DNA of 64,000 nt, taken from assembly GCF_003018255.1 (NCBI RefSeq), contig NZ_CP027440.1; one strand, written 5' to 3'. The DNA comes from Escherichia coli (lineage in GTDB: Bacteria; Pseudomonadota; Gammaproteobacteria; Enterobacterales; Enterobacteriaceae). Under the pieces are notes generated by a model. That model ran no database searches. It was not told the DNA's origin and worked only from the letters and a program-made list of their open reading frames with translations. How positions within the stretch are numbered: the stretch's first letter is position 1; each line of letters opens with the position of its first letter. Positions 1 to 22,877 of this stretch are shown here, piece by piece. A program made the position numbers and the translations under genes.

Positions 1-243
1 ATCTGCAACTTCCGTCTGGATTACGCTCCCATTGAGCAACAGTGGGATTTGCTCTTCGCTGATTACTTTGCCGAAGATCTCAAGCTGCTCGCCCCGTTAG
101 CAAAAGATGGGCTGGTGGATGTGGATGAGAAGGGAATACAGGTGACGGCGAAAGGTCGCTTGCTGATCCGCAACATTTGCATGTGCTTTGATACCTATCT
201 GCGCCAGAAAGCGCGGATGCAGCAGTTCTCTCGGGTGATTTAA
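1..243 (+). CDS. hemN: Oxygen-independent coproporphyrinogen III oxidase HemN, C-terminal part (5' end outside window)
   Basis: Frame open from base 1 to the stop at 241-243; ORF-track peptide ends ...QQFSRVI; position upstream of glnG as in E. coli. Confidence 0.75.
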   Translation: MCNFRLDYAPIEQQWDLLFADYFAEDLKLLAPLAKDGLVDVDEKGIQVTAKGRLLIRNICMCFDTYLRQKARMQQFSRVI

Positions 244-310
244 ATTGTGAATGGCGCTTCGTTTACAAAGTAGAAAACGAAAGCGCCATCAATGTGCTGA
301 GAACAAGATT

Positions 311-399
311 GCCTGATGCGCTACGCTTATCAGGCCTGCAAAATCTGTTGAAAATATTGCTTTTGTAGGCCGGATAAGGCGTTCACGCCGCATCCGGCA
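311..399. repeat. REP/BIME palindromic elements (gcctgatgcgctacgcttatcaggcc ... gtaggccggataaggcgttcacgccgcatccggca)
   Basis: Typical E. coli REP consensus read directly in the hemN-glnG intergenic region. Confidence 0.7.
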
Positions 400-432
400 T
401 GAACAAAGAGCACTTCATCAGCAATCTGAAAC

Positions 433-543
433 TCAACTAAACAGCCCAATCATCGCGGCACACAGCACGGCAGCAACAGCAGTTTGCGGTGTGTGGCTGT
501 CAACTGCGCCACTCGATACCAGATTAATTATTGATTCCAGCAT
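433..543 (-). CDS. yshB: Small protein, 36 aa (MLESIINLVSSGAVDSHTPQTAVAAVLCAAMIGLFS), YshB-like
   Basis: Hand-translated minus-strand ORF (ATG at 541-543, stop at 433-435), below the ORF-track length cutoff; identity from recollection of a small gene in this intergenic region. Confidence 0.4.
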   Translation of the reverse strand: MLESIINLVSSGAVDSHTPQTAVAAVLCAAMIGLFS

Positions 544-654
544 AATGACTCTCCCCGTTTTCCGGGCAAGATCATACTGAACTTATCGGAACAGTAAAGC
601 GCAAAACACCAGCAATTTGCGCTCAATAATCAATCTTTACACACAAGCCGTGAA

Positions 655-2064
655 TCACTCCATCCCCAGCTCTTTTAACTTCCGCGTCAGAGTGTTACGC
701 CCCCAGCCGAGTAGCCGCGCCGCTTCCTGTTTATGCCCTTGCGTATGTCGCAACGCGGTCGTCAGTAACGTCCGCTCCAGCTCAGGCTGCGCTTCGGAAA
801 GCAGATTTTGATGACCGGAACGCAGCGCTCTGTCTGCCCACTGCGCTAAAAGTGTCGCCCAACTGTCCGGTTGCATTTGAGAAGTACTCTCCGCAACCGT
901 TGATTCAAACAGTTCACCGGGCAAATCCTGAATCAACACTTCCTGCCCGGCGGCCATCACCGTTAGCCAGCGACAGGTGTTTTCCAGCTGGCGCACGTTC
1001 CCCGGCCACGCCAGGCGCGTCAGCGCGGCTTCGGTTTCCGGATGCAGCAACTTCGCTTCTACGCCCAGTTCGCGCGCGGCAACCTGTAAAAAATGGCGTG
1101 CCAGACGGGGAATATCTTCCCGACGCTCACGCAGTGGCGGCAGATGAACGCGGATGACGTTCAGGCGGTGGAACAGATCCTCACGGAACTTACCTTCCTG
1201 CACCCGCTGTTCAAGATTCTGGTGAGTGGCAGCGATAATCCGCACATCTACTTTCACCGGCGCATAGCCGCCAACGCGATAAAACTGACCATCTGCCAGT
1301 ACGCGCAGCAAACGCGTCTGCACATCCAGCGGCATATCGCCAATTTCATCGAGGAATAATGTGCCACCATCAGCCTGTTCAAAACGCCCCTGACGAATGG
1401 TATTCGCGCCGGTAAATGCGCCTTTCTCGTGACCAAACAGTTCGGATTCGATCAAATCCTTCGGGATAGCCGCCATATTGAGCGCGATAAACGGCGCTTT
1501 GGCTCGCGGACTGTGGCGATGCAGGGCATGAGCGACCAGTTCTTTACCGGTGCCGGACTCGCCGTTAATCAGCACGCTAATAGAAGAACGCGAAAGCCGA
1601 CCGATAATCCGGAACACGTCCTGCATGGCTGGCGCTTCACCGATGATATCGGTCGTTGGGCCGTTAAGCTGAACATTACGCGGCTGCTGCTGTTCCTGGT
1701 AATGACTGATGGCGCGCTCAACCAGCGCCACGGCTTCGTCGATATCAAACGGTTTGGGCAGATAATCAAATGCCCCTTGTTGATAGGCGCTGACGGCAGC
1801 ATCCAGATCGGAATGTGCGGTCATAATGATGACCGGAAGCATCGGATGGCGCTGTTTAATCTGCTTGAGCAGCGCCAGCCCGTCCATTCCCGGCATACGG
1901 ATATCTGAAAGCAGCACATCCGGCGTTTTGCTCGCCAGCGCCTCCAGTACCTCCGCGCCGTTCTCAAATGTTGTACAGGTTAAACCCGCTCCAGCGAGCG
2001 CACGTTCAAGCACCCAACGGATGGAACTATCGTCATCGACTACCCAGACTATCCCTCGTTGCAT
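655..2064 (-). CDS. glnG: Nitrogen regulation response regulator NtrC (NRI), sigma54 activator, 469 aa
   Basis: ORF 655..2124; start placed at internal Met ([23 protein letters not shown]...) giving 469 aa; receiver, AAA+ (GESGTGKE) and HTH domains. Confidence 0.93.
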
Positions 2065-2075
2065 AAACGTCACCT

Positions 2076-3125
2076 TTATTTCCTGATAGGCAGGTAAACC
2101 GAGAACTCGGTATGACCTGGCCAACTGGTAAATTCAATTTTGCCTGAATGCTGATCAATCAAATTACGGGCGATGGATAAGCCAAGCCCGGTGCCACCTT
2201 CGCGGCCGCTGACCATCGGGTAAAACAGCGTATCCTGCAAATGAGGCGGAATACCTGGCCCGTTATCTTCCACATCAATTCGCGCCGCCAGCCGATAGCG
2301 CTCGCCGTGTAAGGTCAGTTGAAACGCTGTGCGGGTACGCAGAATGATTTCACCACCCTCCGGCCCCAGCGCCTGTAGCGCATTGCGCACAATATTCAGC
2401 AAGACCTGTTCAATTTGATCCGGGTCGTGCGCCAGTTCCGGCAGGCTGGGGTCGTAATCCCGAATCAACCGCACGTTGTCCGGCAGTTCCATCGACACCA
2501 GCGTCACCACGCGTTCAGCTACTTTATGAATACTTTCGGTAACGCGCGTACCGGGCAGTTGCGGTCCCAACAGACGGTCGACCAGATTTCGCAGCCGGTC
2601 CGCCTGTTCGATAATCACTTTGGTATATTCGAGTAGTGACGGGTCAGGTAATGCTTTGCTGAGCAGCTGCGCCGCGCCACGTAAACCGCCAAGCGGATTT
2701 TTAATCTCATGTGCCAGGCCGCGCACTAAATCACGGGCAGCAACCTGCTGGGCGTGCTGTAGCTGTTCCTGACTTAAGCGGCGCTGGTTATCCATCGGTG
2801 CCATCTCCAGCAGGATCATGCCGTCCGGCATACGCTGGGCCGTCACAGAAAGGATATGCGAGCGCCCGTCGATGACCAGCGTCACTTCGTTATCAGTAAA
2901 ACCTTGCCCCGCCTCCAGACTTTCTTGCATCAGCTCGATATTTAATGAGAAGTAGCTCAACAGTTCCGGTAACGGTGTACCAAACAATTTGCGGGAGCTT
3001 TGGGCGAGCAGTTGTTGCGCGGCGGGGTTGGCGTAATGGATCGCCAGGTTGTCATCGATTAACAAAATACTGTTAATCAGCGAGTTGAGGATCTGCCCAG
3101 CATCGGGCTGCGTGCCTGTTGCCAT
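2076..3125 (-). CDS. glnL: Nitrogen regulation sensor histidine kinase NtrB (NRII), 349 aa
   Basis: ORF-track peptide [25 protein letters not shown]... with H-box HEIKNPLGG; 11-nt gap to glnG. Confidence 0.93.
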
Positions 3126-3213
3126 AAAGCAGTCTCCTGAACAGGTTGCACCATTTTAGTGCATTATAGCTTTTTACGGATAAAAAGCGCGAAGCATCAG
3201 AGAATTGACGGAG

Positions 3214-3238
3214 AAAAAAGCCCATGCAGAGATGGGCT
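3214..3238 (-). terminator. Rho-independent terminator of glnA (hairpin gcccatctctgcatgggc followed by a T-run on the minus strand)
   Basis: Plus-strand aaaaaag-cccatgcagagatgggc read at 3214-3237. Confidence 0.6.
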
Positions 3239-3298
3239 GAAAGTTTCCACGGCAACTAAATCCCGGCGTTGTTGCGCCGGGTAGTACAACTTCAACTA
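3214..3298 (-). ncRNA. glnZ: glnA 3'UTR, candidate 3'UTR-derived sRNA (GlnZ-like)
   Basis: Region between the glnA stop and its terminator; 3'UTR-derived sRNAs from glnA are described in enterobacteria; no structure-level confirmation here. Confidence 0.3.
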
Positions 3299-4708
3299 TT
3301 AGACGCTGTAGTACAGCTCAAACTCTACCGGGTGCGGAGTCATACGCACGCGGTCATCTTCTTCGCGACGCAGAGCGATGTACGCATCGATCGCTTCATC
3401 AGTGAACACGCCACCGGCTTTCAGGAACTCACGGTCCAGATCCAGTTCGTTCAGTGCTTCTTCCAGAGAACCAGCAACCTGTGGGATCTCTTTCGCTTCT
3501 TCCGGCGGCAGGTCATACAGGTTTTTGTCCATCGCTTCGCCCGGATGGATCTTGTTCTTGATACCGTCAAGACCGGCCATCAGCAGGGCAGCAAAGCACA
3601 GGTACGGGTTAGCCGCCGGGTCCGGGAAACGTACTTCGATACGACGTGCTTTCGGAGAAGAAACCACTGGAATACGGATAGACGCAGAACGGTTACGCGC
3701 AGAGTAAGCCAGCATTACCGGTGCTTCGTAGCCCGGGACCAGACGCTTGTAAGAGTTGGTGGTCGGGTTTGCCAGGGCGTTAATCGCTTTCGCGTGTTTG
3801 ATGACGCCGCCAATGTAGTACAGCGCCTGTTCAGACAGACCTGCATATTTGTCGCCCGCGAACAGGTTAACGCCATTTTTAGCCAGCGACATATGGCAGT
3901 GCATACCGGAGCCGTTATCACCGAACATCGGTTTTGGCATAAAGGTCGCGGTTTTACCGAAGCGGTGCGCTACGTTGTGCACAACATATTTGTAGATCTG
4001 AATTTCGTCAGCTTTTTTGGTCATGGTATTGAAGCGGGTAGCCACTTCGTTCTGACCAGCAGTCGCTACTTCGTGGTGATGGGCTTCAACCACCAGACCC
4101 ATCTGTTCCATCACCAGACACATTTCAGAACGAATATCCTGAGCAGAGTCTACCGGCGGAACCGGGAAGTAACCGCCTTTCACTGCCGGACGGTGACCTT
4201 TGTTACCACCTTCGTATTGGGTGGAGGAGTTCCATGCGCCTTCGATATCGTCGATAGCAACGTGAGAACCGGAGATAGATGATCCGAAACGGATGTCATC
4301 GAACAGGAAGAATTCAGGTTCTGGCCCGAACAGTACGGTGTCGGCAATGCCAGTGGAACGCAGGTAATCTTCGGCGCGCTTCGCAATAGAGCGCGGGTCA
4401 CGGTCATAGCCTTGCAGGGTGCCAGGTTCAAGGATGTCGCAACGGATAATCAGGGTAGAATCGGCGAAGAACGGGTCAATCACTGCGGTGGATGCGTCTG
4501 GCATCAGCACCATGTCGGATTCGTTAATGCCTTTCCAGCCGCCAATCGAGGAGCCGTCAAACATTTTGCCTTCTTCGAAGAATTCAGCATTCACCTGATG
4601 AGCAGGGATAGTGACGTGCTGTTCTTTACCTTTGGTATCGGTGAAGCGCAAATCAACAAACTTCACTTCGTGCTCGTTCAGCATCGTCAGTACGTGTTCA
4701 GCGGACAT
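3299..4708 (-). CDS. glnA: Glutamine synthetase, 469 aa
   Basis: ORF-track peptide [35 protein letters not shown]...; ATG read at 4706-4708. Confidence 0.97.
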
Positions 4709-8920: not shown

Positions 8921-10186
8921 ATGCTCACGAAAAAGAAATGGGCGTTATTTAGTCTATTAACATTGTGTGGCGGTACAATTTATAAATTACCGTCTCTGAA
9001 AGATGCGTTTTATATCCCGATGCAGGAATATTTCCATTTGACCAATGGTCAAATTGGTAATGCTATGTCGGTAAACTCATTTGTCACCACAGTGGGCTTT
9101 TTTCTGTCTATTTATTTTGCCGATAAACTACCGCGCAGATACACCATGTCATTCTCACTCATTGCGACAGGATTACTGGGTGTTTATTTGACGACAATGC
9201 CGGGGTATTGGGGCATCCTCTTTGTCTGGGCGCTATTTGGCGTTACTTGCGACATGATGAACTGGCCGGTCTTGCTCAAGTCGGTAAGTCGATTGGGCAA
9301 TAGCGAACAACAAGGTCGGTTGTTTGGCTTCTTCGAAACAGGGCGTGGCATTGTCGATACCGTGGTGGCATTTTCTGCGTTGGCAGTATTTACCTGGTTT
9401 GGCAGTGGCTTATTGGGTTTTAAAGCAGGCATCTGGTTCTATTCCCTTATTGTGATTGCCGTAGGCATTATCATTTTCTTTGTCCTGAATGACAAAGAAG
9501 AGGCACCGTCCGTTGAGGTGAAAAAAGAAGACGGAGCATCGCAAAACACCAGTATGACCTCGGTGCTGAGAGATAAAACCATCTGGCTTATCGCTTTCAA
9601 CGTCTTCTTCGTTTACGCGGTTTACTGTGGCCTAACATTCTTCATTCCATTCCTGAAAAACATCTATCTATTGCCCGTTGCTCTGGTGGGGGCTTACGGC
9701 ATCATTAACCAATACTGTCTGAAAATGATTGGAGGACCGATTGGTGGCATGATTTCAGATAAGATCCTGAAATCGCCGAGTAAATATCTATGCTACACCT
9801 TTATCATAAGTACCGCTGCGCTCGTACTGTTGATTATGCTGCCGCACGAAAGTATGCCGGTCTATTTAGGGATGGCATGTACGCTGGGCTTTGGCGCTAT
9901 AGTCTTCACACAGCGAGCCGTATTTTTTGCACCTATCGGCGAAGCAAAAATTGCTGAAAATAAAACAGGCGCGGCGATGGCGTTGGGTAGCTTTATTGGT
10001 TACGCCCCGGCGATGTTCTGCTTCAGTCTGTATGGCTACATTCTGGATTTAAATCCGGGGATTATTGGCTACAAAATCGTGTTTGGCATTATGGCCTGCT
10101 TCGCATTCTGTGGTGCGGTGGTTTCCGTAATGCTGGTTAAGCGTATTAGCCAACGTAAGAAAGAGATGCTGGCGGCTGAAGCTTAA
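8921..10186 (+). CDS. yihN: MFS transporter, 421 aa
   Basis: Polytopic membrane protein; position and length match K-12 YihN. Confidence 0.85.
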   Translation: MLTKKKWALFSLLTLCGGTIYKLPSLKDAFYIPMQEYFHLTNGQIGNAMSVNSFVTTVGFFLSIYFADKLPRRYTMSFSLIATGLLGVYLTTMPGYWGILFVWALFGVTCDMMNWPVLLKSVSRLGNSEQQGRLFGFFETGRGIVDTVVAFSALAVFTWFGSGLLGFKAGIWFYSLIVIAVGIIIFFVLNDKEEAPSVEVKKEDGASQNTSMTSVLRDKTIWLIAFNVFFVYAVYCGLTFFIPFLKNIYLLPVALVGAYGIINQYCLKMIGGPIGGMISDKILKSPSKYLCYTFIISTAALVLLIMLPHESMPVYLGMACTLGFGAIVFTQRAVFFAPIGEAKIAENKTGAAMALGSFIGYAPAMFCFSLYGYILDLNPGIIGYKIVFGIMACFAFCGAVVSVMLVKRISQRKKEMLAAEA

Positions 10187-10245
10187 TTAGTGGCCGGATG
10201 TGCTTAATCCGGCCAACGAAAACCGTATCAACCGAAGTTTCAATT

Positions 10246-11034
10246 TCAGGATACTTCTTGCTCGGCAACCACCAGTTCAACATTCTCTTCACTTAACAAC
10301 TGGCAGAAAGAATTGGGAGGCGGGGCATCAGTAAAAAAAGCCCTGACATTCCGTGCATTGCCAATTGAAACGGCAGCAGACGCGGTAAACTTCGTATGAT
10401 CGGCCACTAACAATGTATTCCGCGCATGTTTAATCATCGTTCTCGCGACTAACGCTTCATTGACATCAAATTCCAGTAGGGTGCCGTCATGTTCAATGGC
10501 ACCTATACTGGTGATTAAATAATCTGCGCGGAAGCCTTCAATAAAATCCACGGCTCCTGGGCCGATAATCCCACCGTTATGAGCGCGTAAAGTGCCTCCC
10601 GGCACCATCACTTCAATATCCTGATTCTTATAAAGAATCTGTGCCACACGCAGGCTATTAGTGATAATGCGTAAATCACGCCGGTTGAGTAATGCCCTGG
10701 CAACGGCTTCTACGGTTGTACCGATGGTGATAAAGACGGTACAGCGTTCGGGAAGGTAATCGGCGACTGCCTCAGCGATCGCCCGTTTCTCGGCGGTGAG
10801 CGAAAGTTCCCGTTGCTCAAAAGCGGTATTCATGACGCTGGAGACGCGCCCGGCCCCTCCATGATGACGGGTGATCAAGCCCTGCTCACTGAGTTTTCGG
10901 ATATCCCGGCGCACGGTTTGCGTTGAAACATCCAGCAGTTGTGCCAGTTCTTCAATATTCATATAACCGCGTTCTGCGATTAGATGAACGAGTTGGTCAT
11001 GGCGTGGATTACCTGTCACTTCGATGATACTCAT
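10246..11034 (-). CDS. DeoR-family transcriptional regulator (YihW/CsqR-like), 262 aa
   Basis: N-terminal HTH (IEELAQLLDVSTQTVRRDIRKL) and DeoR C-terminal sugar-phosphate-binding domain; ATG read at 11032-11034 with upstream RBS. Confidence 0.8.
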   Translation of the reverse strand: MSIIEVTGNPRHDQLVHLIAERGYMNIEELAQLLDVSTQTVRRDIRKLSEQGLITRHHGGAGRVSSVMNTAFEQRELSLTAEKRAIAEAVADYLPERCTVFITIGTTVEAVARALLNRRDLRIITNSLRVAQILYKNQDIEVMVPGGTLRAHNGGIIGPGAVDFIEGFRADYLITSIGAIEHDGTLLEFDVNEALVARTMIKHARNTLLVADHTKFTASAAVSIGNARNVRAFFTDAPPPNSFCQLLSEENVELVVAEQEVS

Positions 11035-11073
11035 GAATACTCCCTTGCCCCTCCTCGGTAGATGTTTACCATT

Positions 11074-11970
11074 TTACGCATAAAGTGACAAAAATGATTC
11101 GGTTTGCTCACGATTAGGAATGCCGGCCCGACCGCCAGGCTGGGTACATTTCATCGCGGCAACCGCACTGGCAAAACGAATAGCCTCTTTTGTTGGCATT
11201 TTTTCTGCCAACGCTACCGCGAGTGCGCCGTGAAAAACATCGCCTGCTCCAGTGGTATCAACCACATTGACAGAAAATGCCTCCTGTTGACACAAATGAC
11301 CATCTTCAATCCACAACGATCCTTCAGAACCCAGCGTAACATACACTTTACCTGCTGTTTGTGTCGTTGCCTGGAACAAACCTTCTTCAGGTGACTGCAG
11401 GCCAGTCATGCGTTTCAGCCCAGGTGTTGAGAACACGGCGTGATCGGCAAGCGCGACAAGTGGAGAAATATCCTGCGGTGTCATATCGGCGTCTAAAAGC
11501 GTTGTCACACCCGCAAGGCGCGCTAGCGAGAATGCTTTTTCAGTACCGCTATGCCAGCGAACATCGGCCAGAATCAGATCATAACGAGAGAAATCGATCG
11601 CTTCTAACCATTCGGCATCAGTACCGAGATCAGGACTTGGATAATTAACGATAATCCGTTCGCCATGCTGATCAACGAGGATCGCTGATTGCGACGAACG
11701 GGCGTTAGGATATCGGCGGCAAAATGCGGTATTGACGCCCCAACCCTCAAGTTCTGCAAGTAAGGTATTTCCACAACTGTCATCGCCGACGCGACCGATG
11801 AAATCAACCTCCACGCCAAGCTTTGCGATTGCAACAGCGGCTGTTGCTGCCGGGCCGCCACCAATCTCAAGATAATGATTTGCCTGATATTTCCCGCCGC
11901 CCTCCGGCAGAGTGGGCAAAGAATAAATCCTGTCCTGAACTGTGATACCCACGCATGCAATTCTGGTCAT
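11074..11970 (-). CDS. PfkB-family sugar kinase (YihV / 6-deoxy-6-sulfofructose kinase-like), about 298 aa
   Basis: ORF 11074..12021; start placed at internal ATG ([13 protein letters not shown]...); PfkB signature [18 protein letters not shown]. Confidence 0.8.
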
Positions 11971-12142
11971 ATTTGTCTTGTCCTGTTTAATTTTGTCGTC
12001 TTTGGTCAATTTAAATGACACAAATGATCAAATTAGTGATGCGTGTCGTGTTTTTGAACATAAATTACAAATATGCTCAAAAACAGACGAAAACGAATTT
12101 TCAATTGTCATTATTTTGTCAATGTCAGACAGGAGAGTATTC
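11971..12142. promoter_or_regulatory. Divergent intergenic control region between the kinase/regulator and reductase/aldolase operons, with TTGTCA direct repeats
   Basis: AT-rich 172-bp region; TTGTCA read at 12105-12110 and 12116-12121 (11-bp spacing), tgtcag at 12123-12128; RBS aggagag at 12131-12137. Confidence 0.4.
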
Positions 12143-13021
12143 ATGGCAACCATTGCATTTCTCGGGCTGGGGCAGATGGGTAGCCCAATGGCTAACAATC
12201 TATTGCAAAAAGGGCATTCATTGCAGGTATTTGATGTCAATGCACAGGCCGTCGATGTGCTAGTTACGCAGGGGGCCACTGCGGCACAAACCCCAGCGGA
12301 AGCAGCAGCAGGCGCTGAATTTATCATCACTATGCTTCCCAATGGTGACATTGTTCGACAGGTTCTGTTGGGGGAAAAAGGCGTCTGTGAGGCTGTTTCA
12401 TCTGACGCGTTATTGATTGATATGTCGACTATTCATCCCTTACAGACCGATGCATTAATACGGGAGTTACAAGAAAAAGGCATCAGTATGATGGACGCTC
12501 CCGTGGGCAGAACGTCCGTGAATGCGATTGATGGCACATTGCTGATTTTAGCGGGTGGCACTGATGAGCAGATTGCACGTGCACGCCCGATTCTCATGTG
12601 CATGGGTAATGAACTGGTCGAGGCTGGCGGCCCAGGAATGGGGATCCGCGTGAAGCTAATTAACAACTATATGAGCATTGCGCTTAATGCGCTGTCCTCC
12701 GAGGCCGCTGTGTTATGTGAGTCACTGGGATTAAATCTTGATGTCGCAATTAAGGTGATGAGTGGTACGGCAGCAGGGAAAGGACATTTTACGACCACCT
12801 GGCCTGGCAAAGTGCTGAAAGGCGATCTTTCACCCGCCTTCATGGTGGATCTGGCGTTGAAAGATCTGCGTATTGCAGTTGACGTCGCTCGGGAGACGGG
12901 GGCACCGCTCAATATGGGGATTGCAGCAGAAAGTTATTACGCCGCAGCAAGTCAAGACGGCAAAGGGCGGCAGGATTGGAGTGCCCTGCTAAATCAGGTT
13001 CGCCAGCAGGCTGGTCTTTAA
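12143..13021 (+). CDS. NAD(P)-dependent HIBADH-family reductase (YihU / 3-sulfolactaldehyde reductase-like), about 292 aa
   Basis: ORF 11942..13021; start placed at ATG 12143 ([20 protein letters not shown], Rossmann GxGxxG). Confidence 0.8.
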
Positions 13022-13045
13022 TTTTATCTATTAACAGGAGTTTCT

Positions 13046-13933
13046 ATGTCATCCCACTTCACCCCATTTACGCTGAAAGATATCTCCCGCCCAGGTGGTG
13101 GATTCGCCATGTTAGCTGTCGATCAGCGTGAGGCCATGCGCCTGATGTTTGCGGCAGCAGGGCAGCCAAAACCCATCGCCGACAGTGTACTCACCGATTT
13201 TAAAGTTGCCGCGACCCGAATCCTTTCTCCTTATGCTTCTGCCGTTCTGGCGGATAAACAATTTTGTCTTGAACAAATAGTCGAGCAGGGCGCTGTGGCT
13301 AATTCTTGCGGCCTGATTGTCGCTGCCGATCTTTTTATCCCAGGTAATGGCATCCCGGTTGATAGCGTTGAAATAGATATGTCCGTCGACCCGCATAAAG
13401 CCCGTGAAATGGGGGCTAAGGCAATGAAATTACTTGTACTCTGGCGTGAAGATGAACCCGCAGAGGAACGTCTGGCAATGGTTGATAAATTTGTTCGTCG
13501 CTGCCGTAGTGCCGGGCTGGTTAGCATTATTGAACCTGTGGTGCGTCCACCTCGTCGCGGTTGGGACTTTGATCGTGAAAGCGCCATTGTTGCCGCCGCC
13601 GCAGAGCTTGGTGGAACAGAGGCTGATCTTTACAAAGCCGAGATGCCATTAGGGGGCAAAGGCGATGAAAAAACCTTACTTGCCGCCTGTCAGCAACTTA
13701 ACGATCAGATGAAGATGCCGTGGGTAATTCTTTCTTCTGGCGTTGATGCCGATATTTTTGGCCGTGCAGTAAGTATTGCCATGAAAGGTGGTGCGTCGGG
13801 CTTCCTGGCTGGACGAGCGGTATGGGCGTCGGTTGTTGGTGCACAAGATCCACAAACCATGCTGCGCGATGTCTCCGTTCCACGCTTGCAACGGCTGGCT
13901 GAAATTGTCGATGAAGGTATCGCGCAACGCTAA
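13046..13933 (+). CDS. Class I aldolase of the LacD/DeoC family (YihT / sulfofructose-phosphate aldolase-like), 295 aa
   Basis: ORF-track peptide [29 protein letters not shown]...; family assignment from recollection. Confidence 0.7.
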
Positions 13934-13965
13934 TCCCCTATGGATATCGATTCTGGAGAATAACA

Positions 13966-14976
13966 ATGGATAAAATTACCCAGGTTTTATTTTCAGATAT
14001 TGGGAAAGTCACCACTCAATATGTTGAAGTACCACACCAGCAACTTAAACCGCACGAAGTACGGATTGCGCCCGTGTTCTACGGGATATGCGGTTCGGAT
14101 CTGCATGTTCTGAAAGGCGGTCATCCGTTTGCCAAGCCGCCTGTCGTCCCCGGTCATGAAATTGCAGCGCGCGTTACGGAAGTGGGCAGCGACGTTAAAA
14201 ATGTACAGCCGGGCGATCATGTTGTGGTCGATCCCATCATGGCTTGCATGGAATGCCGAGCCTGCAAAGCAGGACGTTTTAATCTTTGTGAACCACCGCA
14301 GGTTGCTGGTTTTCGCGCACCGGGCTTTGCTCGCTCACAACACATTGTTCCTGCGCGTAATTGCCATGTCGCACCAGCCTCTTTACCGCTAAAAGTGTTG
14401 GCCTTTGCCGAACCGGCGGCTTGTGCTCGTCACTGCGTTAACCGAATGCCGAAAGCTTCTCTGGAAAGCGTACTGGTGATTGGTGCCGGAACGATAGGCT
14501 TATCCATCGTGCAGGCACTGCGCATTATGGGGGCAGGTAAGATTACCGTGATTGAACCTGACGCTGCCAAACGCGCGCTGGCGTTAAAGCTGGGCGCAGC
14601 AGAAGTTTGGGCACCAGGTGAGCTGGCCGCAGATGTGAGATTTACGGGGGCGATTGATGTCGTTGCAGCGCAGGCCACGCTTAACGATGCATGTACCCGT
14701 GTATATGCCGGAGGCACCGTCGTGTGCATGGGCGTACCAAGTGGGCCGCGTGAAATACCATTACCGATGATGCAACGTTTCGAGCGTGACTTGCTCAACT
14801 CTGGCATGTACATCCCTGAAGATTTCGATGCTGTTATCGAATGGCTGGCGGATGGGCGGTTTGATACCAGTGAACTGGTTACCGATTTATTTGCCATTGA
14901 GGATGCAGCGGCGGCATTCGAACGCGCGCAGCAAAATGACTCCATAAAGGTCATGCTGCAATTTGCGCCGGAATGA
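13966..14976 (+). CDS. Zn-dependent medium-chain alcohol/polyol dehydrogenase (sorbitol/galactitol-1-phosphate dehydrogenase-like), 336 aa
   Basis: Catalytic-zinc motif CGSDLH...GHE, structural-zinc cysteines CMECRACKAGRFNLC, NAD-binding VIGAGTIGL. Confidence 0.8.
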   Translation: MDKITQVLFSDIGKVTTQYVEVPHQQLKPHEVRIAPVFYGICGSDLHVLKGGHPFAKPPVVPGHEIAARVTEVGSDVKNVQPGDHVVVDPIMACMECRACKAGRFNLCEPPQVAGFRAPGFARSQHIVPARNCHVAPASLPLKVLAFAEPAACARHCVNRMPKASLESVLVIGAGTIGLSIVQALRIMGAGKITVIEPDAAKRALALKLGAAEVWAPGELAADVRFTGAIDVVAAQATLNDACTRVYAGGTVVCMGVPSGPREIPLPMMQRFERDLLNSGMYIPEDFDAVIEWLADGRFDTSELVTDLFAIEDAAAAFERAQQNDSIKVMLQFAPE

Positions 14977-15045
14977 TTTTCTAAATCTCTGTCTGGCGCT
15001 GCGTCACGTCAGCGCCACCCTACAACAATTAAAAAGGACACTGCG

Positions 15046-16479
15046 ATGAGTCAAATCACCAGTCCTGCAACTTATTCAATTAGTCGGCCACAGGACGTAA
15101 TTGATATTGTTAATAAGAACTCTGCAATCAACACCAGTATCGGCGTTATTTTTATTGCTTTGGGCGGCATATTGATTGATGCCTACCAGGTGGCGATGGT
15201 GGGGTTTGGTAATAAATACATTGCCGCTCAATTCGGCATTTCTCCGGGTCTTGCTGCGACCGTCAATGCGTCAGTATTAATCGCCGCGTTAATTGGCGGT
15301 TTATTAGCGAACCGAGTAATAAACCGCTTTGGGCAAAAGCGGGCATTTATTATTGGCATGGGGCTGTGCACCATCGGTGCTGCAGCGGTAGCTATTGCTC
15401 CCAGTATCTGGTGGGTGCTGGTGTGCCGCGTCATCATGGGCTTTGGTTTAGGCATCGACTTCCCTTTGGCAACTAATGCCGTGGCAGAGCTTCGTGGTTC
15501 AACGTCGAAGAAAACCGGAACGTCGGTCAACCTCTGGCAAATGGCCTGGTATGTTTCGACAACCGTTGTTTATTTGGTGCTTTTGCCGCTGCTTCTGTCG
15601 GGTATCGCTGAAGAACAATTGTGGCGTTACGGAATATTCATCGGAGCTATTTTTGCAGTCATCTTCATGATTTTGCGTTACTTCTTTATTGGTGAATCCG
15701 CAATGTGGGCCGCACGCGTTGGGCGTTACCAGGAAGCGTGCGACATTCTGGGAAAACGTTATGGTGTTCAGGCTCGCGTTGCGGCATCGGGTACAACAGA
15801 AGCGAAATTCTCGGAAAAAGCAGAGAATAAATACAGTGGTGGATATGGCATCTTATTTAATGATCGTTACCGCAAACGCACCATTCTTGGCTGTGTCGTG
15901 GCAACCATGCAGGCGTGGCAATATAACGCCGTAGGTGTTTATCTTCCTCTTACGTTGGCGGGAATAATAAGTGGCGGGCTTACTGGCGCGTTGACCGGTT
16001 CTGCCGTCGTGAATGCCCTTTGTGGGGTGACAGGTGGGATGATCGGCTCGTTTATTCTCCAACGACTGGGTACTCGCCGACAGTCGATGTATGGATTTGC
16101 TGTTGTGACCTTAGCATTGCTGTCGTTAGGCGCACTGGCAACGACTAATCCTTGGCTGTCTTTAGGGTTATTGGGATCAATTATTTTCTTCCATTCAGCG
16201 GGTCCTGGTGGGCTGGGCATGACCATTGCCACACTCTCTTATCCTCCCGCTATTCGCCCTACTGGGGTCGGATTTGCCCGCGCTATTATGCGCACAGGGG
16301 CAATTGCAGGACTCATTTTCTGGCCGATGCTGTGGGGTGCGTTGAAAACTGAAGCGTTTTACTGGTTGGCAATCGTGCCATTCCTGGGATTCCTAACCTG
16401 TGTATTGATTAATTGGGAACCACTGGGTGCAAATGTTGATGCTGAGGACGCAGAGGTTCTGGCTGAATTGAAGAAATAA
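15046..16479 (+). CDS. MFS transporter, 477 aa
   Basis: Multiple hydrophobic segments; MFS motif A (GGLLANRVINRFGQKRAF). Confidence 0.8.
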   Translation: MSQITSPATYSISRPQDVIDIVNKNSAINTSIGVIFIALGGILIDAYQVAMVGFGNKYIAAQFGISPGLAATVNASVLIAALIGGLLANRVINRFGQKRAFIIGMGLCTIGAAAVAIAPSIWWVLVCRVIMGFGLGIDFPLATNAVAELRGSTSKKTGTSVNLWQMAWYVSTTVVYLVLLPLLLSGIAEEQLWRYGIFIGAIFAVIFMILRYFFIGESAMWAARVGRYQEACDILGKRYGVQARVAASGTTEAKFSEKAENKYSGGYGILFNDRYRKRTILGCVVATMQAWQYNAVGVYLPLTLAGIISGGLTGALTGSAVVNALCGVTGGMIGSFILQRLGTRRQSMYGFAVVTLALLSLGALATTNPWLSLGLLGSIIFFHSAGPGGLGMTIATLSYPPAIRPTGVGFARAIMRTGAIAGLIFWPMLWGALKTEAFYWLAIVPFLGFLTCVLINWEPLGANVDAEDAEVLAELKK

Positions 16480-16577
16480 TTTAATGCGCATCGGCTTAAG
16501 CCGATGCGCATTAATTCAAACTGCCCACGTTTAGTGGTTCGTATCCCAGATTTCTCGCCTACCAGGAGAGGAAAATT

Positions 16578-17927
16578 ATGTCTGAAAAGTTACCCGCACC
16601 GCGTGAAGGGCTTTCCGGTAAAGCCATGAGACGTGTCGTTATGGGCAGTTTCGCAGGCGCGTTAATGGAATGGTATGACTTCTTTATTTTTGGCACGGCA
16701 GCAGGACTGGTATTTGCACCGCTGTTTTATCCAGACAGCGATCCTTTTATAGGTCTTATAGCTTCCTTTGCGACCTTTGGTGTCGGTTTTCTGACTCGTC
16801 CTTTAGGGGGCATCGTCTTTGGTCATTTTGGCGATAAAATCGGGCGAAAAATAACACTTATCTGGACGCTGGCTATTGTCGGTTGCTCCACATTTTTGAT
16901 TGGTTTTATTCCGACGTATCAGGAAATTGGCATTTGGGCACCGCTTGTATTAATGGTGCTGCGTTTGATTCAGGGCTTTGGTCTTGGTGGCGAGTACGGT
17001 GGAGCGGCATTGATGACCATAGAATCAGCGCCCGAATCCCGACGCGGATTTTTAGGTTCACTCCCGCAAACGGCTGCGTCTGTGGGTATTATGCTGGCAA
17101 CCGGTATTTTTGCTCTCTGTAACCATTTTCTTACTTCGGAGCAGTTTCTCTCCTGGGGATGGCGCATTCCGTTTTGGCTTTCTGCGGTGATGTTGATCGT
17201 TGGGCTGTTTATCCGCCTACATACCGAAGAAACGCTGGATTTTCAAAAGCAAAAAACGACGAATAATAAAGAAAAGTCCGTTCCTCCGTTGATTGAATTA
17301 TTCAAAAAACATCCACGAAATATTTTATTGGCACTGGGTGCGAGGCTGGCGGAAAGTGTCTCCTCTAATATTATTAATGCCTTTGGTATTGTCTATATTT
17401 CCAGCCAATTAGCATTGTCGCGAGATATTCCCCTGACGGGTATGTTGATTGCCTCGGCGATCGGTATTTTCAGTTGTCCATTGGTTGGATGGTTATCAGA
17501 TCGTATAGGTCAAAAAAGTCTGTATTTGTCGGGAGCAGGATTTTGTGTCCTGTTCGCGTTTCCTTTCTTCTTATTATTGGATAGCAAAAGTACGCTCATC
17601 ATCTGGTGCAGTATGATCCTCGGCTACAACTTAGGTCCGACGATGATGTTTGCCGTGCAGCCAACACTTTTCACCCGCATGTTCGGTACCAAAGTACGAT
17701 ATACCGGCCTTTCTTTTGCTTATCAATTTTCCGCGATTCTTGGCGGACTAAGCCCCCTTATCGCCTCAAGTTTGCTGGCGCTAGGGGGAGGAAAACCGTG
17801 GTATGTCGCTCTGTTTTTATTTGCTGTCTCAGTTCTTTCCTTTGTTTGCGTCTGGCTGATTGAGCCGACCGATGAACAAGAAACCGCTTCTTACCGCTAC
17901 ATCAGGGAACAATCTCATGAAAACTGA
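16578..17927 (+). CDS. MFS transporter of the metabolite:H+ symporter type (ProP/KgtP/ShiA-like), 449 aa
   Basis: Characteristic N-terminus EWYDFFIFG and GHFGDKIGRK loop motif. Confidence 0.75.
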   Translation: MSEKLPAPREGLSGKAMRRVVMGSFAGALMEWYDFFIFGTAAGLVFAPLFYPDSDPFIGLIASFATFGVGFLTRPLGGIVFGHFGDKIGRKITLIWTLAIVGCSTFLIGFIPTYQEIGIWAPLVLMVLRLIQGFGLGGEYGGAALMTIESAPESRRGFLGSLPQTAASVGIMLATGIFALCNHFLTSEQFLSWGWRIPFWLSAVMLIVGLFIRLHTEETLDFQKQKTTNNKEKSVPPLIELFKKHPRNILLALGARLAESVSSNIINAFGIVYISSQLALSRDIPLTGMLIASAIGIFSCPLVGWLSDRIGQKSLYLSGAGFCVLFAFPFFLLLDSKSTLIIWCSMILGYNLGPTMMFAVQPTLFTRMFGTKVRYTGLSFAYQFSAILGGLSPLIASSLLALGGGKPWYVALFLFAVSVLSFVCVWLIEPTDEQETASYRYIREQSHEN

Positions 17928-18804
17928 ACGAAAAAACGAGCATTACCTGGCGCTACAACAGGCGTTTGACGCGCCATGGCCTGGGCCTGTAGGAGAGTTA
18001 GTGATGCTGGAAAAAGGCAATATTCACCTGCAGATTTATCCGCATGATGGTGCCAGGATAACCTCGTTAAAGGCATTTGGTTCTGAAGTATTACGCCAAT
18101 GGCAGCCGCAGCGCAGAGCTTTTCAGTATGGCTGTTTCCCAATGGTGCCGTGGGCAGGGCGACTGGGGAATGCGACGCTGAATGCTGGTGGGCAATGTTA
18201 TTCTTTACCCGCCAATAAACCACCACATGCGTTGCATGGTATGGCTTGTTACTCAACGTGGGAAATCATCGACAAAACAGCAGATTCCCTGACTTTACGT
18301 ATGCCCCTGGCTTCACCGTGGCCCTGGCAAGGGGAAGTGATTCAGACTTTTTTGCTGGAGAACGATGCGCTGGTTTTGCAACTGGAAGTCCATTCATATG
18401 CCGATACATTCCCGGCCTCCGCAGGCTGGCATCCGTGGTTTGCGAAAAAGCTGACTCCGCAAAATACAGAATCGTTGCAGGTGCTTTTTGATGCGGACTG
18501 GCAAGAAGAAGCGGGTAGTGATGAACTGCCAACTGGAAATCGTATCTCTCCTCAAGTCGGTCCCTGGGATGACTGTTTTGGTTTTTATGACGGGGTGAAG
18601 GTTAAGTTACTGTGGCCTGGTAAACTCGCGATGACCATGACCTCTTCTGCAAACAGTCTGGTGGTATTTGATAAACAGCCCGATGCCACCTGTATTAACC
18701 CGCTGACTCAGGCACCTAACGCAATAAATCTAACGCCGGAATTTGTGACACCAGATAAGCCGCTGGTCATCGAAACTCGTTGGCAATTTACACCTGAATC
18801 TTAA
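17872..18804 (+). CDS. Aldose 1-epimerase (mutarotase)-like protein (YihR-like), about 310 aa; alternative ATG at 17917
   Basis: ORF 17860..18804 begins at a TTG; ATG codons at 17872 and 17917; start overlaps the end of the upstream transporter gene. Confidence 0.65.
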   Translation: MNKKPLLTATSGNNLMKTERKNEHYLALQQAFDAPWPGPVGELVMLEKGNIHLQIYPHDGARITSLKAFGSEVLRQWQPQRRAFQYGCFPMVPWAGRLGNATLNAGGQCYSLPANKPPHALHGMACYSTWEIIDKTADSLTLRMPLASPWPWQGEVIQTFLLENDALVLQLEVHSYADTFPASAGWHPWFAKKLTPQNTESLQVLFDADWQEEAGSDELPTGNRISPQVGPWDDCFGFYDGVKVKLLWPGKLAMTMTSSANSLVVFDKQPDATCINPLTQAPNAINLTPEFVTPDKPLVIETRWQFTPES

Positions 18805-18944
18805 CCATTCATCTATTGCGAAAAAGACAGTGAAATTACTCTGCTTTTTCGCAATCAGCATCACAAGATTACCCTTATTGCCACATAGCCAAACCCATCC
18901 TTTCCCGCTACAGTTAATTTCTTGTGGCGCGAAAGGAGGCAAAA

Positions 18945-19544
18945 ATGCTCTATATCTTTGATTTAGGTAATGTGATTGTCGATATCGACTTTAACCGTGT
19001 GCTGGGGGCCTGGAGCGATTTAACGCGTGTTCCACTGGCTACGCTTAAGAAGAGTTTCCACATGGGCGAGGCGTTTCATCAGCATGAGCGTGGGGAAATT
19101 AGCGACGAAGCGTTCGCAGAGGCGCTGTGTCATGAGATGGCCCTGCCGCTAAGCTACGAGCAGTTCTCTCACGGCTGGCAGGCGGTGTTTGTCGCGCTGC
19201 GCCCGGAAGTGATCGCCATCATGCATAAACTGCGTGAGCAGGGGCATCGCGTGGTGGTGCTTTCCAATACCAACCGCCTGCATACCACCTTCTGGCCGGA
19301 AGAATATCCGGAAATTCGTGATGCTGCTGACCATATCTATCTGTCGCAAGATCTGGGGATGCGCAAACCCGAAGCACGAATTTACCAGCATGTTTTGCAG
19401 GCGGAAGGTTTTTCACCAGACGATACGGTCTTTTTCGACGATAACGCCGATAATATAGAAGGAGCTAATCGGCTAGGCATTACTAGTATTCTGGTGAAAG
19501 ATAAAACCACCATCCCGGACTATTTCGCGAAGGTGTTATGCTAA
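18945..19544 (+). CDS. yihX: HAD-family alpha-D-glucose-1-phosphate phosphatase, 199 aa
   Basis: ORF 18924..19544; start at internal Met ([17 protein letters not shown]...), HAD motif I. Confidence 0.9.
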
Positions 19545-21893: not shown

Positions 21894-22877
21894 TTACCTT
21901 CCCGCTCTCCAGGCAACATCCCGTAGCGCCGATCGCGCAGCCTCGCTGATACCACCTAACTGAAAAAATCCGTGGATAACGCCAAGGTAGCGTTGGCAGG
22001 TGCATTGCACTCCTTGCCCTGTCATGCGGTGATACAACGCTTCACCTTCATCGCAAAGTGGGTCGTATTCAGCGGTAATGATATGTACAGGTGGCAAGCC
22101 ATTGAAATCATCGCGCCAAAGAGGGCTGGCTTCAGGATGCCTGCGTTCAATGCCTGGCAGGTACATCTCAAAGCCGCTCAGTAAAGTGTCGCGTGTGATG
22201 ATGTAATCGTGACCATTGCGTATGTAGCTTTCGAAATGCGCAGTCGCATCAAGCATGGGATAAATTAAGATGAGTTGTGCTGGTTGCCACTCGCCAGCAC
22301 GCTTCAATCGCAAAGCAGTTACCAGCGCCAGATGCCCTCCCGCACTGTCACCGGCAAGAGTTATTCGTTGTTTATCAACGCCGAGTCGTTCGGCGTGTTG
22401 CCGGACTAATTCTGCACCTCGTTGTGCATCATCATGGGCGGCGGGGAAAGTATGTTCCGGTGCCAGCCGATACTGGACGGCAATAATCCGACATTGCCCG
22501 TAATAGGCTAACTGGCGCAGCTGGTTGTCGTGAGTTGCGAACCCGCCGCTAACAAAACAGCCACCGTAGTAATAAATTATCGTCGGGAGTAATGTCGGGG
22601 CATTCAGCGGTGACACTATTCGTAAGGTCATCCCTTCAAGTTCGATAGTCTGAATATCTACCCGCGTTTCTGTCTCACCCGCAAGGACAGCGCTGGCGAT
22701 ATAGCCCTCTCTGCGCTGCGTAATACTTTGTTGGCGCGATGAGGGGCGACCCGCAGCGATAAACTCTTCGACTAACTCTGCAATTCCTTTTTCCAGTGCC
22801 ATAGTAGAACTCATTTTGCTGTATGAATGTACAGTTTTATACACCCGTTTTTGCTGGATGGATACAGGGAAATTCAC
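21894..22877 (-). CDS. Alpha/beta-hydrolase, hormone-sensitive-lipase (Aes-like) family carboxylesterase, up to 327 aa
   Basis: GDSAGG nucleophile-elbow motif; ORF starts at a GTG (22877), first in-frame ATG at about 22814. Confidence 0.75.
   Translation of the reverse strand: MNFPVSIQQKRVYKTVHSYSKMSSTMALEKGIAELVEEFIAAGRPSSRQQSITQRREGYIASAVLAGETETRVDIQTIELEGMTLRIVSPLNAPTLLPTIIYYYGGCFVSGGFATHDNQLRQLAYYGQCRIIAVQYRLAPEHTFPAAHDDAQRGAELVRQHAERLGVDKQRITLAGDSAGGHLALVTALRLKRAGEWQPAQLILIYPMLDATAHFESYIRNGHDYIITRDTLLSGFEMYLPGIERRHPEASPLWRDDFNGLPPVHIITAEYDPLCDEGEALYHRMTGQGVQCTCQRYLGVIHGFFQLGGISEAARSALRDVAWRAGR

Follow-up and report, generated by a model that had tools for sequence, protein, structure and literature searches.

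What do the genes between yihN and yihX do in those Escherichia coli strains that lack the K-12 set of sulfoquinovose (SQ) genes at this place? In the biological sulfur cycle, sulfoglycolysis is one of the major routes; in the gut it is a source of 2,3-dihydroxypropane-1-sulfonate (DHPS), and hence of H2S, and E. coli is its model organism. Here, we analysed the yihN-yihX interval in a stretch of 64,000 nucleotides of E. coli DNA (contig NZ_CP027440.1 of assembly GCF_003018255.1; this whole 64-kb stretch is called the window below), in which an eight-gene cassette takes the place of the K-12 genes. The existence of the allele is not new, as the polymorphism of the locus has already been published (PMC12608037). 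What is new is the eight-gene content with a dehydrogenase feeder, its conservation in three phyla, the exchange of a module beside a constant core of sulfo-EMP (sulfo-Embden-Meyerhof-Parnas) type, and strong purifying selection. The best explanation is that the cassette is a functional, ancient alternative to the K-12 SQ cassette, i.e., a sulfo-EMP-type system with a different feeder module. We estimate at roughly two in three the probability that it encodes a working sulfonate pathway which is entered through a zinc-dependent medium-chain dehydrogenase/reductase (MDR) enzyme and which serves something other than SQ glycosides.

An alternative cassette between yihN and yihX

In K-12 MG1655, the interval between yihN and yihX is occupied by ompL-yihOPQRSTU-yihV-csqR. 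In the window, the same interval contains eight intact open reading frames (Table 1), which are called identically in the RefSeq annotation of E. coli O83:H1 NRG857C, a strain whose copy of the cassette is 99.1% identical. Homology to K-12 DNA, as assessed by blastn, breaks off at 10237/10238 and resumes at 18877/18878. Outside these breakpoints (up to 10237 and again from 18878) the similarity to K-12 is 98-99%, while inside them alignment with K-12 DNA is confined to two stretches, that of the regulator, kinase and reductase and that of the aldolase, both inverted and with a similarity of 65-67%. Gene families were assigned from NCBIfam and Pfam. The dehydrogenase and both transporters of the major facilitator superfamily (MFS) have no counterpart in the K-12 cluster. 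When K-12 proteins were searched by tblastn against the whole window, YihQ, YihS, YihO, YihP and OmpL gave no match, and YihR gave only a partial one with 27% identity. A reading made earlier from the sequence alone had described a different gene set and order at this locus and the lack of precisely these five proteins; both descriptions hold, for all eight reading frames and their strands. A rearranged K-12 cluster is ruled out, since the four products with K-12 homologues are 67-73% identical to them and the flanks 98-99%, i.e., the former are far from the near-identity that a mere rearrangement, in the terms of the sequence-only reading, would demand. Identities to CsqR, YihV, YihU and YihT no higher than those in Table 1 also mean that the cassette is not an allele of the K-12 cluster.

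Full-length copies of the cassette were found by megablast in 1325 of 5426 complete E. coli genomes (24%), and the K-12-type cassette in 3884 genomes of the same set. As the two types add up to 96% of the genomes, this distribution fits two alternative alleles of one locus. The polymorphism was described by Kaznadzey et al. (2025), who distinguished 'long' and 'short' (yihTUVW) yih cassettes that share one locus but run in opposite orientations; the short form was found in phylogroup B2 and other phylogroups, was enriched in pathogens and is present in Nissle 1917 (PMC12608037). Both RNA-seq and qRT-PCR showed that the short-cassette yih genes of Nissle 1917 are not induced by growth on SQ, on which this strain shows some growth, and the authors concluded that the short cassette, truncated by the lack of yihO-S, is probably no longer involved in SQ degradation (PMC12608037). 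The K-12 yih genes were the sole queries of their homology search, and nowhere in the main text of that paper is the dehydrogenase, either of the MFS genes or the epimerase-like gene mentioned (PMC12608037).

All eight genes are under purifying selection. In the comparison of E. coli with Citrobacter, the ratio of nonsynonymous to synonymous substitution rates (dN/dS) was 0.015-0.10 for the whole set; the MDR gene was among the most constrained (0.015-0.028), and the epimerase-like gene was the least constrained (0.09-0.10), yet still under purifying selection. Synonymous sites of the cassette were saturated to the same degree as those of the flanking yihN and yihX. Taken together, this selection and a synonymous divergence like that of the flanks suggest that the cassette is functional and old at its locus; recent horizontal transfer from Citrobacter, which was considered, is not supported, since cassette and flanks are equally saturated. 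The cassette is an intact, selected and widely distributed eight-gene module, and not a truncated relic.

Neither direct repeats nor mobile-element signatures were found at the cassette boundaries. In NRG857C, genes of the STM4012-STM4015 families (a radical SAM protein, a hydrolase and others; locus positions 1-3787) lie immediately upstream of the DeoR gene. Neighbours of these families also adjoin the yih cluster of Salmonella, while in the window it is yihN that adjoins the cassette. These differing neighbours imply at least two different left junctions for the alternative cassette; some of the megablast matches begin at query base 39 or 46 and not at base 1. A further strain-specific difference lies a few kilobases away: in the window and in NRG857C, fabY (yiiD) is followed by a gene for a 327-aa alpha/beta hydrolase (21894-22877, minus strand), and in K-12 by yiiE and yiiF.

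Table 1. Features of the alternative cassette and its flanks (positions in the window; aa, amino acids; nt, nucleotides).
Feature	Position	Strand	Length	Remarks
yihN, left flank	8921-10186			99.3% aa identity to K-12
Whole alternative cassette	10238..18877		8640 bp	replaces the 11.9-kb K-12 ompL-csqR segment between yihN and yihX
DeoR-family repressor, YihW/CsqR homologue	10246-11034	-	262 aa	DeoR/GlpR NCBIfam matches; 71.5% identity to K-12 CsqR
PfkB kinase, YihV-type, predicted sulfofructose 1-kinase	11074-11970	-	298 aa	67.3% identity to K-12 YihV
Divergent promoter/operator region	11971..12142			between kinase and reductase genes
HIBADH-family reductase, YihU-type, predicted sulfolactaldehyde reductase	12143-13021	+	292 aa	72.6% identity to K-12 YihU
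Class I DeoC/LacD-fold aldolase, YihT-type, predicted sulfofructose-1-phosphate aldolase	13046-13933	+	295 aa	66.7% identity to K-12 YihT
Zn-dependent MDR dehydrogenase, polyol/aldonate type, predicted ketose-forming entry enzyme	13966-14976	+	336 aa	
MFS transporter 1 (MFS1), sugar-porter/aromatic-acid-symporter-like	15046-16479	+	477 aa	NCBIfam matches weak only
Perfect palindrome TTAATGCGCATCGGCTT/AAGCCGATGCGCATTAA	16481..16514		17+17 nt	two bases past the MFS1 stop codon, before MFS2
MFS transporter 2 (MFS2), probably metabolite:H+ symporter (MHS) family, ShiA-like	16578-17927	+	449 aa	
Aldose-1-epimerase-fold protein	17917-18804	+	295 aa	Pfam PF01263, E = 4.6e-21; overlaps the end of MFS2 by 11 nt
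yihX, right flank	18945-19544			98.0% aa identity to K-12

The sulfosugar-type core and the dehydrogenase module

The kinase, the aldolase and the reductase of the cassette are the part shared with K-12. Sharma et al. (2021) described the sulfonate pockets of the K-12 enzymes, formed by K27, N109 and R138 in YihV, by R253 and A26 (H2O) in YihT, together with the Schiff-base K193 and S226/S227, and by N174, S178 and the R123 backbone in YihU (PMC8006165). The window proteins retain every one of these published residues, both those that bind the sulfonate and those of catalysis. In the kinase, the sulfonate triad K27/N109/R138 is accompanied by conserved D13, S95, D162 and D244 (catalytic). In the reductase, a member of the 3-hydroxyisobutyrate dehydrogenase (HIBADH) family, R123, K171, N174 and S178 are conserved, and the protein scores 580 bits on NF012005, the equivalog model of sulfolactaldehyde 3-reductase (cut-off 348), in comparison to 218 bits on the model of tartronate-semialdehyde reductase. 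The window aldolase retains K193, S226, S227, R253 and A26, which recur in all cassettes examined, and is 74% identical to the cassette aldolase of Rhodopseudomonas palustris. Identities of 67-73%, the pocket residues and the NF012005 score thus bear out the assignment of these proteins to the YihV, YihT and YihU families, which the sequence-only reading had made by likeness. The same reading had left the choice of substrate between a 6-deoxy and a sulfo sugar; of these, the sulfo side is favoured, while a 6-deoxy (non-sulfo) substrate is disfavoured by the conservation of the sulfonate pockets.

The regulator belongs to the same picture. It is 75% identical to the regulator of the Yersinia aldovae SQ cluster, and its control region is also shared: a core of about 90 nt of the divergent intergenic region, including ATAAATTACAAATA and TCAAAAACAGAC, is conserved with Citrobacter and with the K-12 yihU/yihV region. 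A simple scan of the divergent region gave no consensus sigma-70 site. YihW of Nissle 1917, which is 72% identical to CsqR, was reported to bind yihU/V intergenic DNA, albeit more weakly, and to be partly freed from it by SQ in vitro, less completely than CsqR (PMC12608037). The shared core agrees with this published cross-binding of the two regulators, and the weak response of the Nissle regulator to SQ in vitro, together with the lack of induction in vivo, fits a related but different effector.

What distinguishes the cassette is its remaining half, which includes the MDR dehydrogenase. The best NCBIfam matches of this enzyme are YdjJ-like, IolM, Tdh and IdnD, and it lies below the cut-off of these and of every other NCBIfam equivalog model. 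The ligands of the catalytic zinc (C42/H64/E65) and of the structural zinc (C94/C97/C100/C108) are invariant or nearly so, and the Rossmann motif GAGTIGL is followed by conserved E197 and D199 at the acidic position of NAD-specific MDR enzymes. An AlphaFold2 model (mean predicted confidence, pLDDT, 90.6) gave TM-scores of 0.86-0.91 to polyol and aldonate dehydrogenases. The top Foldseek matches were 4EJ6 (an uncharacterised Sinorhizobium meliloti enzyme), YdjJ (5VM2), the L-idonate 5-dehydrogenase IdnD (6DKH), RspB (4ILK), the S-DHPS dehydrogenase HpsP (8WWD) and sorbitol dehydrogenases, all of them 24-28% identical. Sorbitol, xylitol, L-idonate and galactitol-1-phosphate dehydrogenases oxidise the secondary hydroxyl adjoining a terminal CH2OH and so form a 1-hydroxy-2-ketose. 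Such a product would supply the head group that a sulfofructose (SF) kinase phosphorylates, and by this family chemistry the enzyme is predicted to catalyse the entry step of the cassette. The cassette MDR family has four invariant basic residues (K57, R117, R271 and R274), while most of 64 paralogues have S, Q, D and L at these positions; these family-specific residues give a slight hint of an anionic ligand.

Both MFS proteins are well conserved. MFS1 is 64-91% identical across phyla, and its gene lies directly 3' of the MDR gene in 14 of 16 cassettes, the exceptions being two Prauserella loci; this constant position suggests a role in import, and we tentatively regard MFS1 as the substrate importer. 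MFS2 (56-87% identical across phyla) scores 406.8 bits on TIGR00883, the model of the MHS family (cut-off 443.45), and 409.7 bits on the ShiA model (cut-off 538). In Jejubacter it was lost together with the reductase, which suggests export of DHPS; MFS2 may thus, tentatively, be a DHPS exporter or a second anion carrier. The two Prauserella loci, which keep MFS2 without MFS1 or a detectable HIBADH, do not fit these roles neatly. Between the two genes, the palindrome listed in Table 1 has one mismatch in NRG857C, and three Citrobacter loci have a hairpin of different sequence at the same place. As the hairpin is kept there with another sequence, a conserved intercistronic stem-loop between MFS1 and MFS2 is suggested.

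The last gene encodes a protein with the aldose-1-epimerase fold, which is 27% identical to YihR over half its length. In comparison to the reference residues of GalM (H104, H175, the D243 region and E309), the catalytic His, His and Asp are kept, while the general-base Glu (E309 in GalM, within 'AVE' in YihR) is replaced by Asn. The window protein and its Citrobacter, Vibrio and Sutterella orthologues have Asn at this position, whereas three other orthologues have Glu, a variation unusual for a catalytic residue. The mutarotase that the sequence-only reading had counted among the sulfo-EMP-like set is hence present as a PF01263 fold, but its role as a mutarotase is doubtful because of the Asn at the place of the catalytic Glu.

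We then asked how widely this gene set occurs. Genome contigs were searched with the MDR alignment; this was not a complete survey, and the matches listed were mostly 30%-identity paralogues. Among the matches listed, MDR orthologues of 55-94% identity occur in Enterobacterales, Vibrio, Sutterella, Alphaproteobacteria, Streptomyces and a metagenome-assembled genome of Propionibacteriaceae, and the Prauserella orthologue is about 45% identical. The full set (DeoR, PfkB, aldolase, MDR, MFS1, HIBADH, MFS2 and the epimerase-like protein) is present in R. palustris BisB18, Pleomorphomonas, an uncultured alphaproteobacterium, Vibrio rhodolitus, Budvicia, Leminorella and three Citrobacter species. 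In Streptomyces marincola the set lacks the epimerase-like gene, and the Sutterella contig begins at the aldolase, so that only the part from the aldolase to the epimerase-like gene is seen. The core formed by the aldolase, MDR, MFS1, MFS2 and the epimerase-like gene stays together at 45-94% identity across phyla, with cross-phylum identities to the window proteins of 56-74% for the aldolase, 64-70% for MFS1, 56-66% for MFS2 and 45-55% for the epimerase-like protein. At 15 loci examined, no YihS, SqvD, GH31 sulfoquinovosidase, transporter of the glycoside-pentoside-hexuronide (GPH) family or OmpL/KdgM porin was found within 10 kb. The distinct module proposed by the sequence-only reading, with its dehydrogenase and other transporters, therefore recurs across phyla beside the same kinds of core genes.

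The other components vary. Enterobacterales and Vibrio are the only groups in which a kinase, HIBADH and regulator of the YihV, YihU and CsqR types accompany the module; Alphaproteobacteria and Actinobacteria have, for all three, unrelated paralogues of 24-33% identity. Half of the pathway has there been displaced by non-orthologous genes, while the aldolase, MDR and transporters are orthologous. Budvicia and Leminorella have replaced the class I aldolase by a class II enzyme 78% identical to YaSqiA, and YaSqiA and HpSqiA are crystallised and kinetically validated class II aldolases of sulfofructose-1-phosphate (SFP), inactive on fructose-1,6-bisphosphate (FBP) (PMC10665668). With 365 bits, the class II aldolase of Vibrio matches HpSqiA better than AgaY (246 bits) or FBP aldolases (about 209 bits), and Q51, H83 and A257 are conserved in it. 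In Jejubacter the class II aldolase shares only 37% identity with YaSqiA, MFS2 and the epimerase-like gene are missing, and an aldehyde dehydrogenase stands in for the HIBADH reductase. Oxidation by an aldehyde dehydrogenase is a known alternative fate of sulfolactaldehyde (SLA). A comparison of this Jejubacter protein with the Protein Data Bank brought out no specific match to a sulfolactaldehyde dehydrogenase. As judged from these genes, the variation of the cassette mirrors the known variation of sulfo-EMP pathways.

Two species offered observations of another kind. In Citrobacter sp. R56, a 912-aa open reading frame lies between the epimerase-like gene and yihX (locus positions 15360-18098); it is probably an autotransporter, with a Pro-rich linker and a C-terminal beta-barrel-like region, and neither E. 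coli nor the other two Citrobacter loci have it. Vibrio sp. SS-MA-C1-2, checked for co-occurrence of the two cassette types, has canonical SQ-type clusters at two separate places; each cluster contains a GH31 gene and one of two SqiA aldolase paralogues. One cluster adjoins genes for a glycyl-radical enzyme, its activase and a TauE exporter, and the other adjoins a tripartite ATP-independent periplasmic (TRAP) transporter and a sulfatase.

Predicted pathway and rival explanations

The gene content may be read as a constant core, leading from SF through SFP to dihydroxyacetone phosphate (DHAP) and SLA and on to DHPS, which is joined to one of two feeder modules. In the feeder module of the window, a free anionic polyol, likely a 6-deoxy-6-sulfohexitol (a reduced sulfoquinovose or sulforhamnose), would be imported by an MFS carrier. 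The NAD+-dependent zinc MDR dehydrogenase would then oxidise the hydroxyl adjoining the terminal CH2OH and yield 6-deoxy-6-sulfofructose, the YihV-type kinase would convert this to SFP, and the YihT-type aldolase would cleave SFP to DHAP and SLA. Finally, the YihU-type reductase would use the NADH from the dehydrogenase step to form DHPS, which the second MFS carrier would export. In the simplest scheme a substrate X and NAD+ give sulfofructose and NADH; X would then be a 6-deoxy-6-sulfohexitol, and with the NADH used again by the SLA reductase, the upper pathway would be redox-neutral. We place this conversion of a sulfohexitol to sulfofructose by the MDR dehydrogenase slightly below an even chance. 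The more specific proposal, a catabolic route for an unrecognised natural organosulfonate such as 6-deoxy-6-sulfo-D-glucitol, opened by a new 'sulfohexitol 2-dehydrogenase', is put forward with greater reserve and is less likely than not.

Several points weigh against a dehydrogenase-entered sulfonate pathway for a sulfohexitol. We know of no sulfohexitol as a natural product. Moreover, a full-text literature search returned no sulfohexitol names. The regiochemistry ascribed to the MDR enzyme is an extrapolation, since its identity to any characterised enzyme is only 24-28%. Some conservation of pocket residues is to be expected anyway at 67-73% identity, and K171 and N174 of YihU are found in HIBADH proteins generally. 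The alphaproteobacterial and actinobacterial kinases and HIBADHs (27-33% identity) have neither the KRN triad nor the YihU pocket residues, so that a sulfonate substrate is argued for there by the aldolase alone. Finally, an alditol substrate needs no mutarotase, and the conserved PF01263 gene is left unaccounted for.

This last point is met more easily if the substrate is free SQ, with the MDR and the epimerase-like protein standing in for YihS via an alditol or keto intermediate. The right module does occupy the exact place of mutarotase, isomerase and sulfoquinovosidase in canonical clusters, an aldose-epimerase-fold protein is usually present and suggests a cyclic aldose, and SQ partly frees the Nissle regulator from DNA and allows some growth of this strain (PMC12608037). 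However, neither RNA-seq nor qRT-PCR showed induction of the cassette by SQ in Nissle 1917 (PMC12608037), and the mutarotase-fold protein of E. coli has Asn for the catalytic Glu. In addition, the conversion of an aldose to a ketose is redox-neutral, so that a lone dehydrogenase is insufficient and the second oxidoreductase is absent from the cassette. We therefore consider free SQ an unlikely substrate. A loss of function, in which the cassette is a truncated and decaying remnant of an SQ cluster with no current catabolic role, would account for the same lack of response to SQ and is close to the published description, which rests on the missing yihO-S and the weaker binding of the regulator (PMC12608037). 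Against it stand the four additional intact genes, yih-like genes of 67-73% identity between flanks of 98-99%, dN/dS values of 0.015-0.10 versus Citrobacter for all eight genes, a gene set conserved in three phyla, and full-length copies in 1325 complete E. coli genomes; such a remnant is highly improbable.

Two further explanations concern the chemistry of the dehydrogenase. Its substrate could be a carboxylated sugar, e.g., an aldonate such as L-gulonate. The dehydrogenase would turn this into a keto-uronate, whose C1 phosphate would be split into DHAP and tartronate semialdehyde, the latter being reduced to glycerate by the HIBADH enzyme. The nearest characterised MDR relatives are indeed the aldonate dehydrogenases IdnD, RspB and YdjJ, MFS2 probably falls in an organic-acid symporter family, and the logic is like that of the E. 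coli ydj cluster, in which DeoR, PfkB, aldolase, MDR and MFS genes are combined. The kinases and HIBADHs of Alphaproteobacteria and Actinobacteria lack sulfonate motifs, and these HIBADHs score about equally on the models of tartronate-semialdehyde and SLA reductases. The aldolases of the cassettes, however, are of SFP-specific types, either YihT-type (56-74% identity, with R253) or SqiA-type (78% to a validated enzyme), and both types were reported to be inactive on FBP (PMC8006165, PMC10665668). In E. coli, moreover, the kinase has the full KRN triad and the reductase scores 580 bits as an SLA reductase versus 218 bits as a tartronate-semialdehyde reductase, which makes a carboxylate an improbable substrate. 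Alternatively, the MDR enzyme might act at the other end of the pathway as a DHPS/sulfolactaldehyde oxidoreductase, i.e., a second SLA reductase or a DHPS dehydrogenase, perhaps specific for one enantiomer, with the entry step encoded elsewhere or with sulfofructose itself being imported. HpsP, an MDR enzyme that oxidises S-DHPS to SLA (PMC11131964), is among the closest structures (8WWD; Foldseek E = 3.5e-29, phmmer E = 6e-30), and since YihS equilibrates SQ, SF and sulforhamnose, SF could occur in SQ-degrading communities. With 26% identity, HpsP is nevertheless no closer than a dozen other MDR enzymes, and the MDR gene co-varies with the transporters and the aldolase rather than with the reductase: it is kept in Jejubacter, where an aldehyde dehydrogenase takes the place of the reductase, and in Prauserella, whose cluster yielded no HIBADH. 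We regard an HpsP-like role as quite unlikely.

A sulfonate pathway entered through the MDR dehydrogenase thus stands as our preferred reading, and the question of the short cassette becomes which reduced sulfosugar this enzyme oxidises to sulfofructose. The cassette is carried by 24% of complete E. coli genomes, including those of the probiotic Nissle 1917 (PMC12608037) and the pathogen NRG857C. If the sulfohexitol route is true, a new organosulfonate would exist in nature, and guts, soils and waters would contain a pool of sulfo-alditols that has gone unseen. Roughly one in four E. coli strains, among them Nissle 1917 and many extraintestinal pathogenic (ExPEC) and adherent-invasive (AIEC) strains, would then hold a private sulfonate niche, unlike strains of the K-12 type. 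The exchange of a module beside a constant core of kinase, reductase, aldolase and regulator is in any case a clear example of catabolic operons rebuilt from parts.

Comparison with known systems

We compared the cassette with the published systems that resemble it. The literature gave no functional assignment of this gene set, which agrees with the claim of the sequence-only reading that the pathway may be uncharacterised, although the polymorphism of the locus itself had been described (PMC12608037). A full-text search for a named sulfohexitol pathway returned no papers, and a 2026 review of SQ catabolism includes no dehydrogenase-entry variant. The sulfofucose pathway (PMC12421959) was considered and dropped, as it is of the Entner-Doudoroff type and uses different enzymes. 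With the short yih cassette of Nissle 1917 the window shares the locus, the inverted order and the identity of the regulator to CsqR (71.5%, in comparison to about 72% as published); that cassette, however, was described as having four genes, and the copy in the window has four further intact ones (PMC12608037).

The dehydrogenase has relatives in another setting. It resembles the MDR polyol and aldonate dehydrogenases (sorbitol dehydrogenase, IdnD, RspB, GatD, YdjJ) in fold, zinc sites and the NAD-type Rossmann motif, but has its own invariant basic residues and is linked to SFP-type aldolases. The ydj cluster of E. coli follows the logic of dehydrogenase, PfkB kinase and aldolase, with DeoR and MFS genes, and differs from the cassette in that the MDR enzyme of the latter is linked to aldolases of the SFP type and not of the FBP or YdjI type.

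The closest comparison for the core is the sulfo-EMP pathway of K-12 (Denger et al. 2014; Sharma et al. 2021, PMC8006165), with which the cassette shares the locus, the repressor, the kinase, the aldolase, the reductase, the control region and the predicted end products DHAP and DHPS. In contrast to K-12, the window has no sulfoquinovosidase, SQ isomerase, GPH transporters or porin, its orientation is inverted, it contains the MDR dehydrogenase together with two unrelated MFS carriers and an epimerase-fold protein of divergent sequence, and the window-type allele is not induced by SQ in Nissle 1917 (PMC12608037). The hybrid sulfo-EMP1/2 clusters of Y. aldovae and Hafnia paralvei (Sharma et al. 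2023, PMC10665668) share the left module of the cassette, with DeoR and PfkB divergent from HIBADH and aldolase, and the regulator, kinase and reductase of the window are 67-75% identical to those of Y. aldovae. The two arrangements part at the next genes: in Y. aldovae and H. paralvei these encode a mutarotase, the isomerase SqvD, a GH31 sulfoquinovosidase, two GPH transporters and a KdgM porin, whereas the cassette in the window continues with the MDR dehydrogenase, MFS1, MFS2 and the epimerase-like gene.

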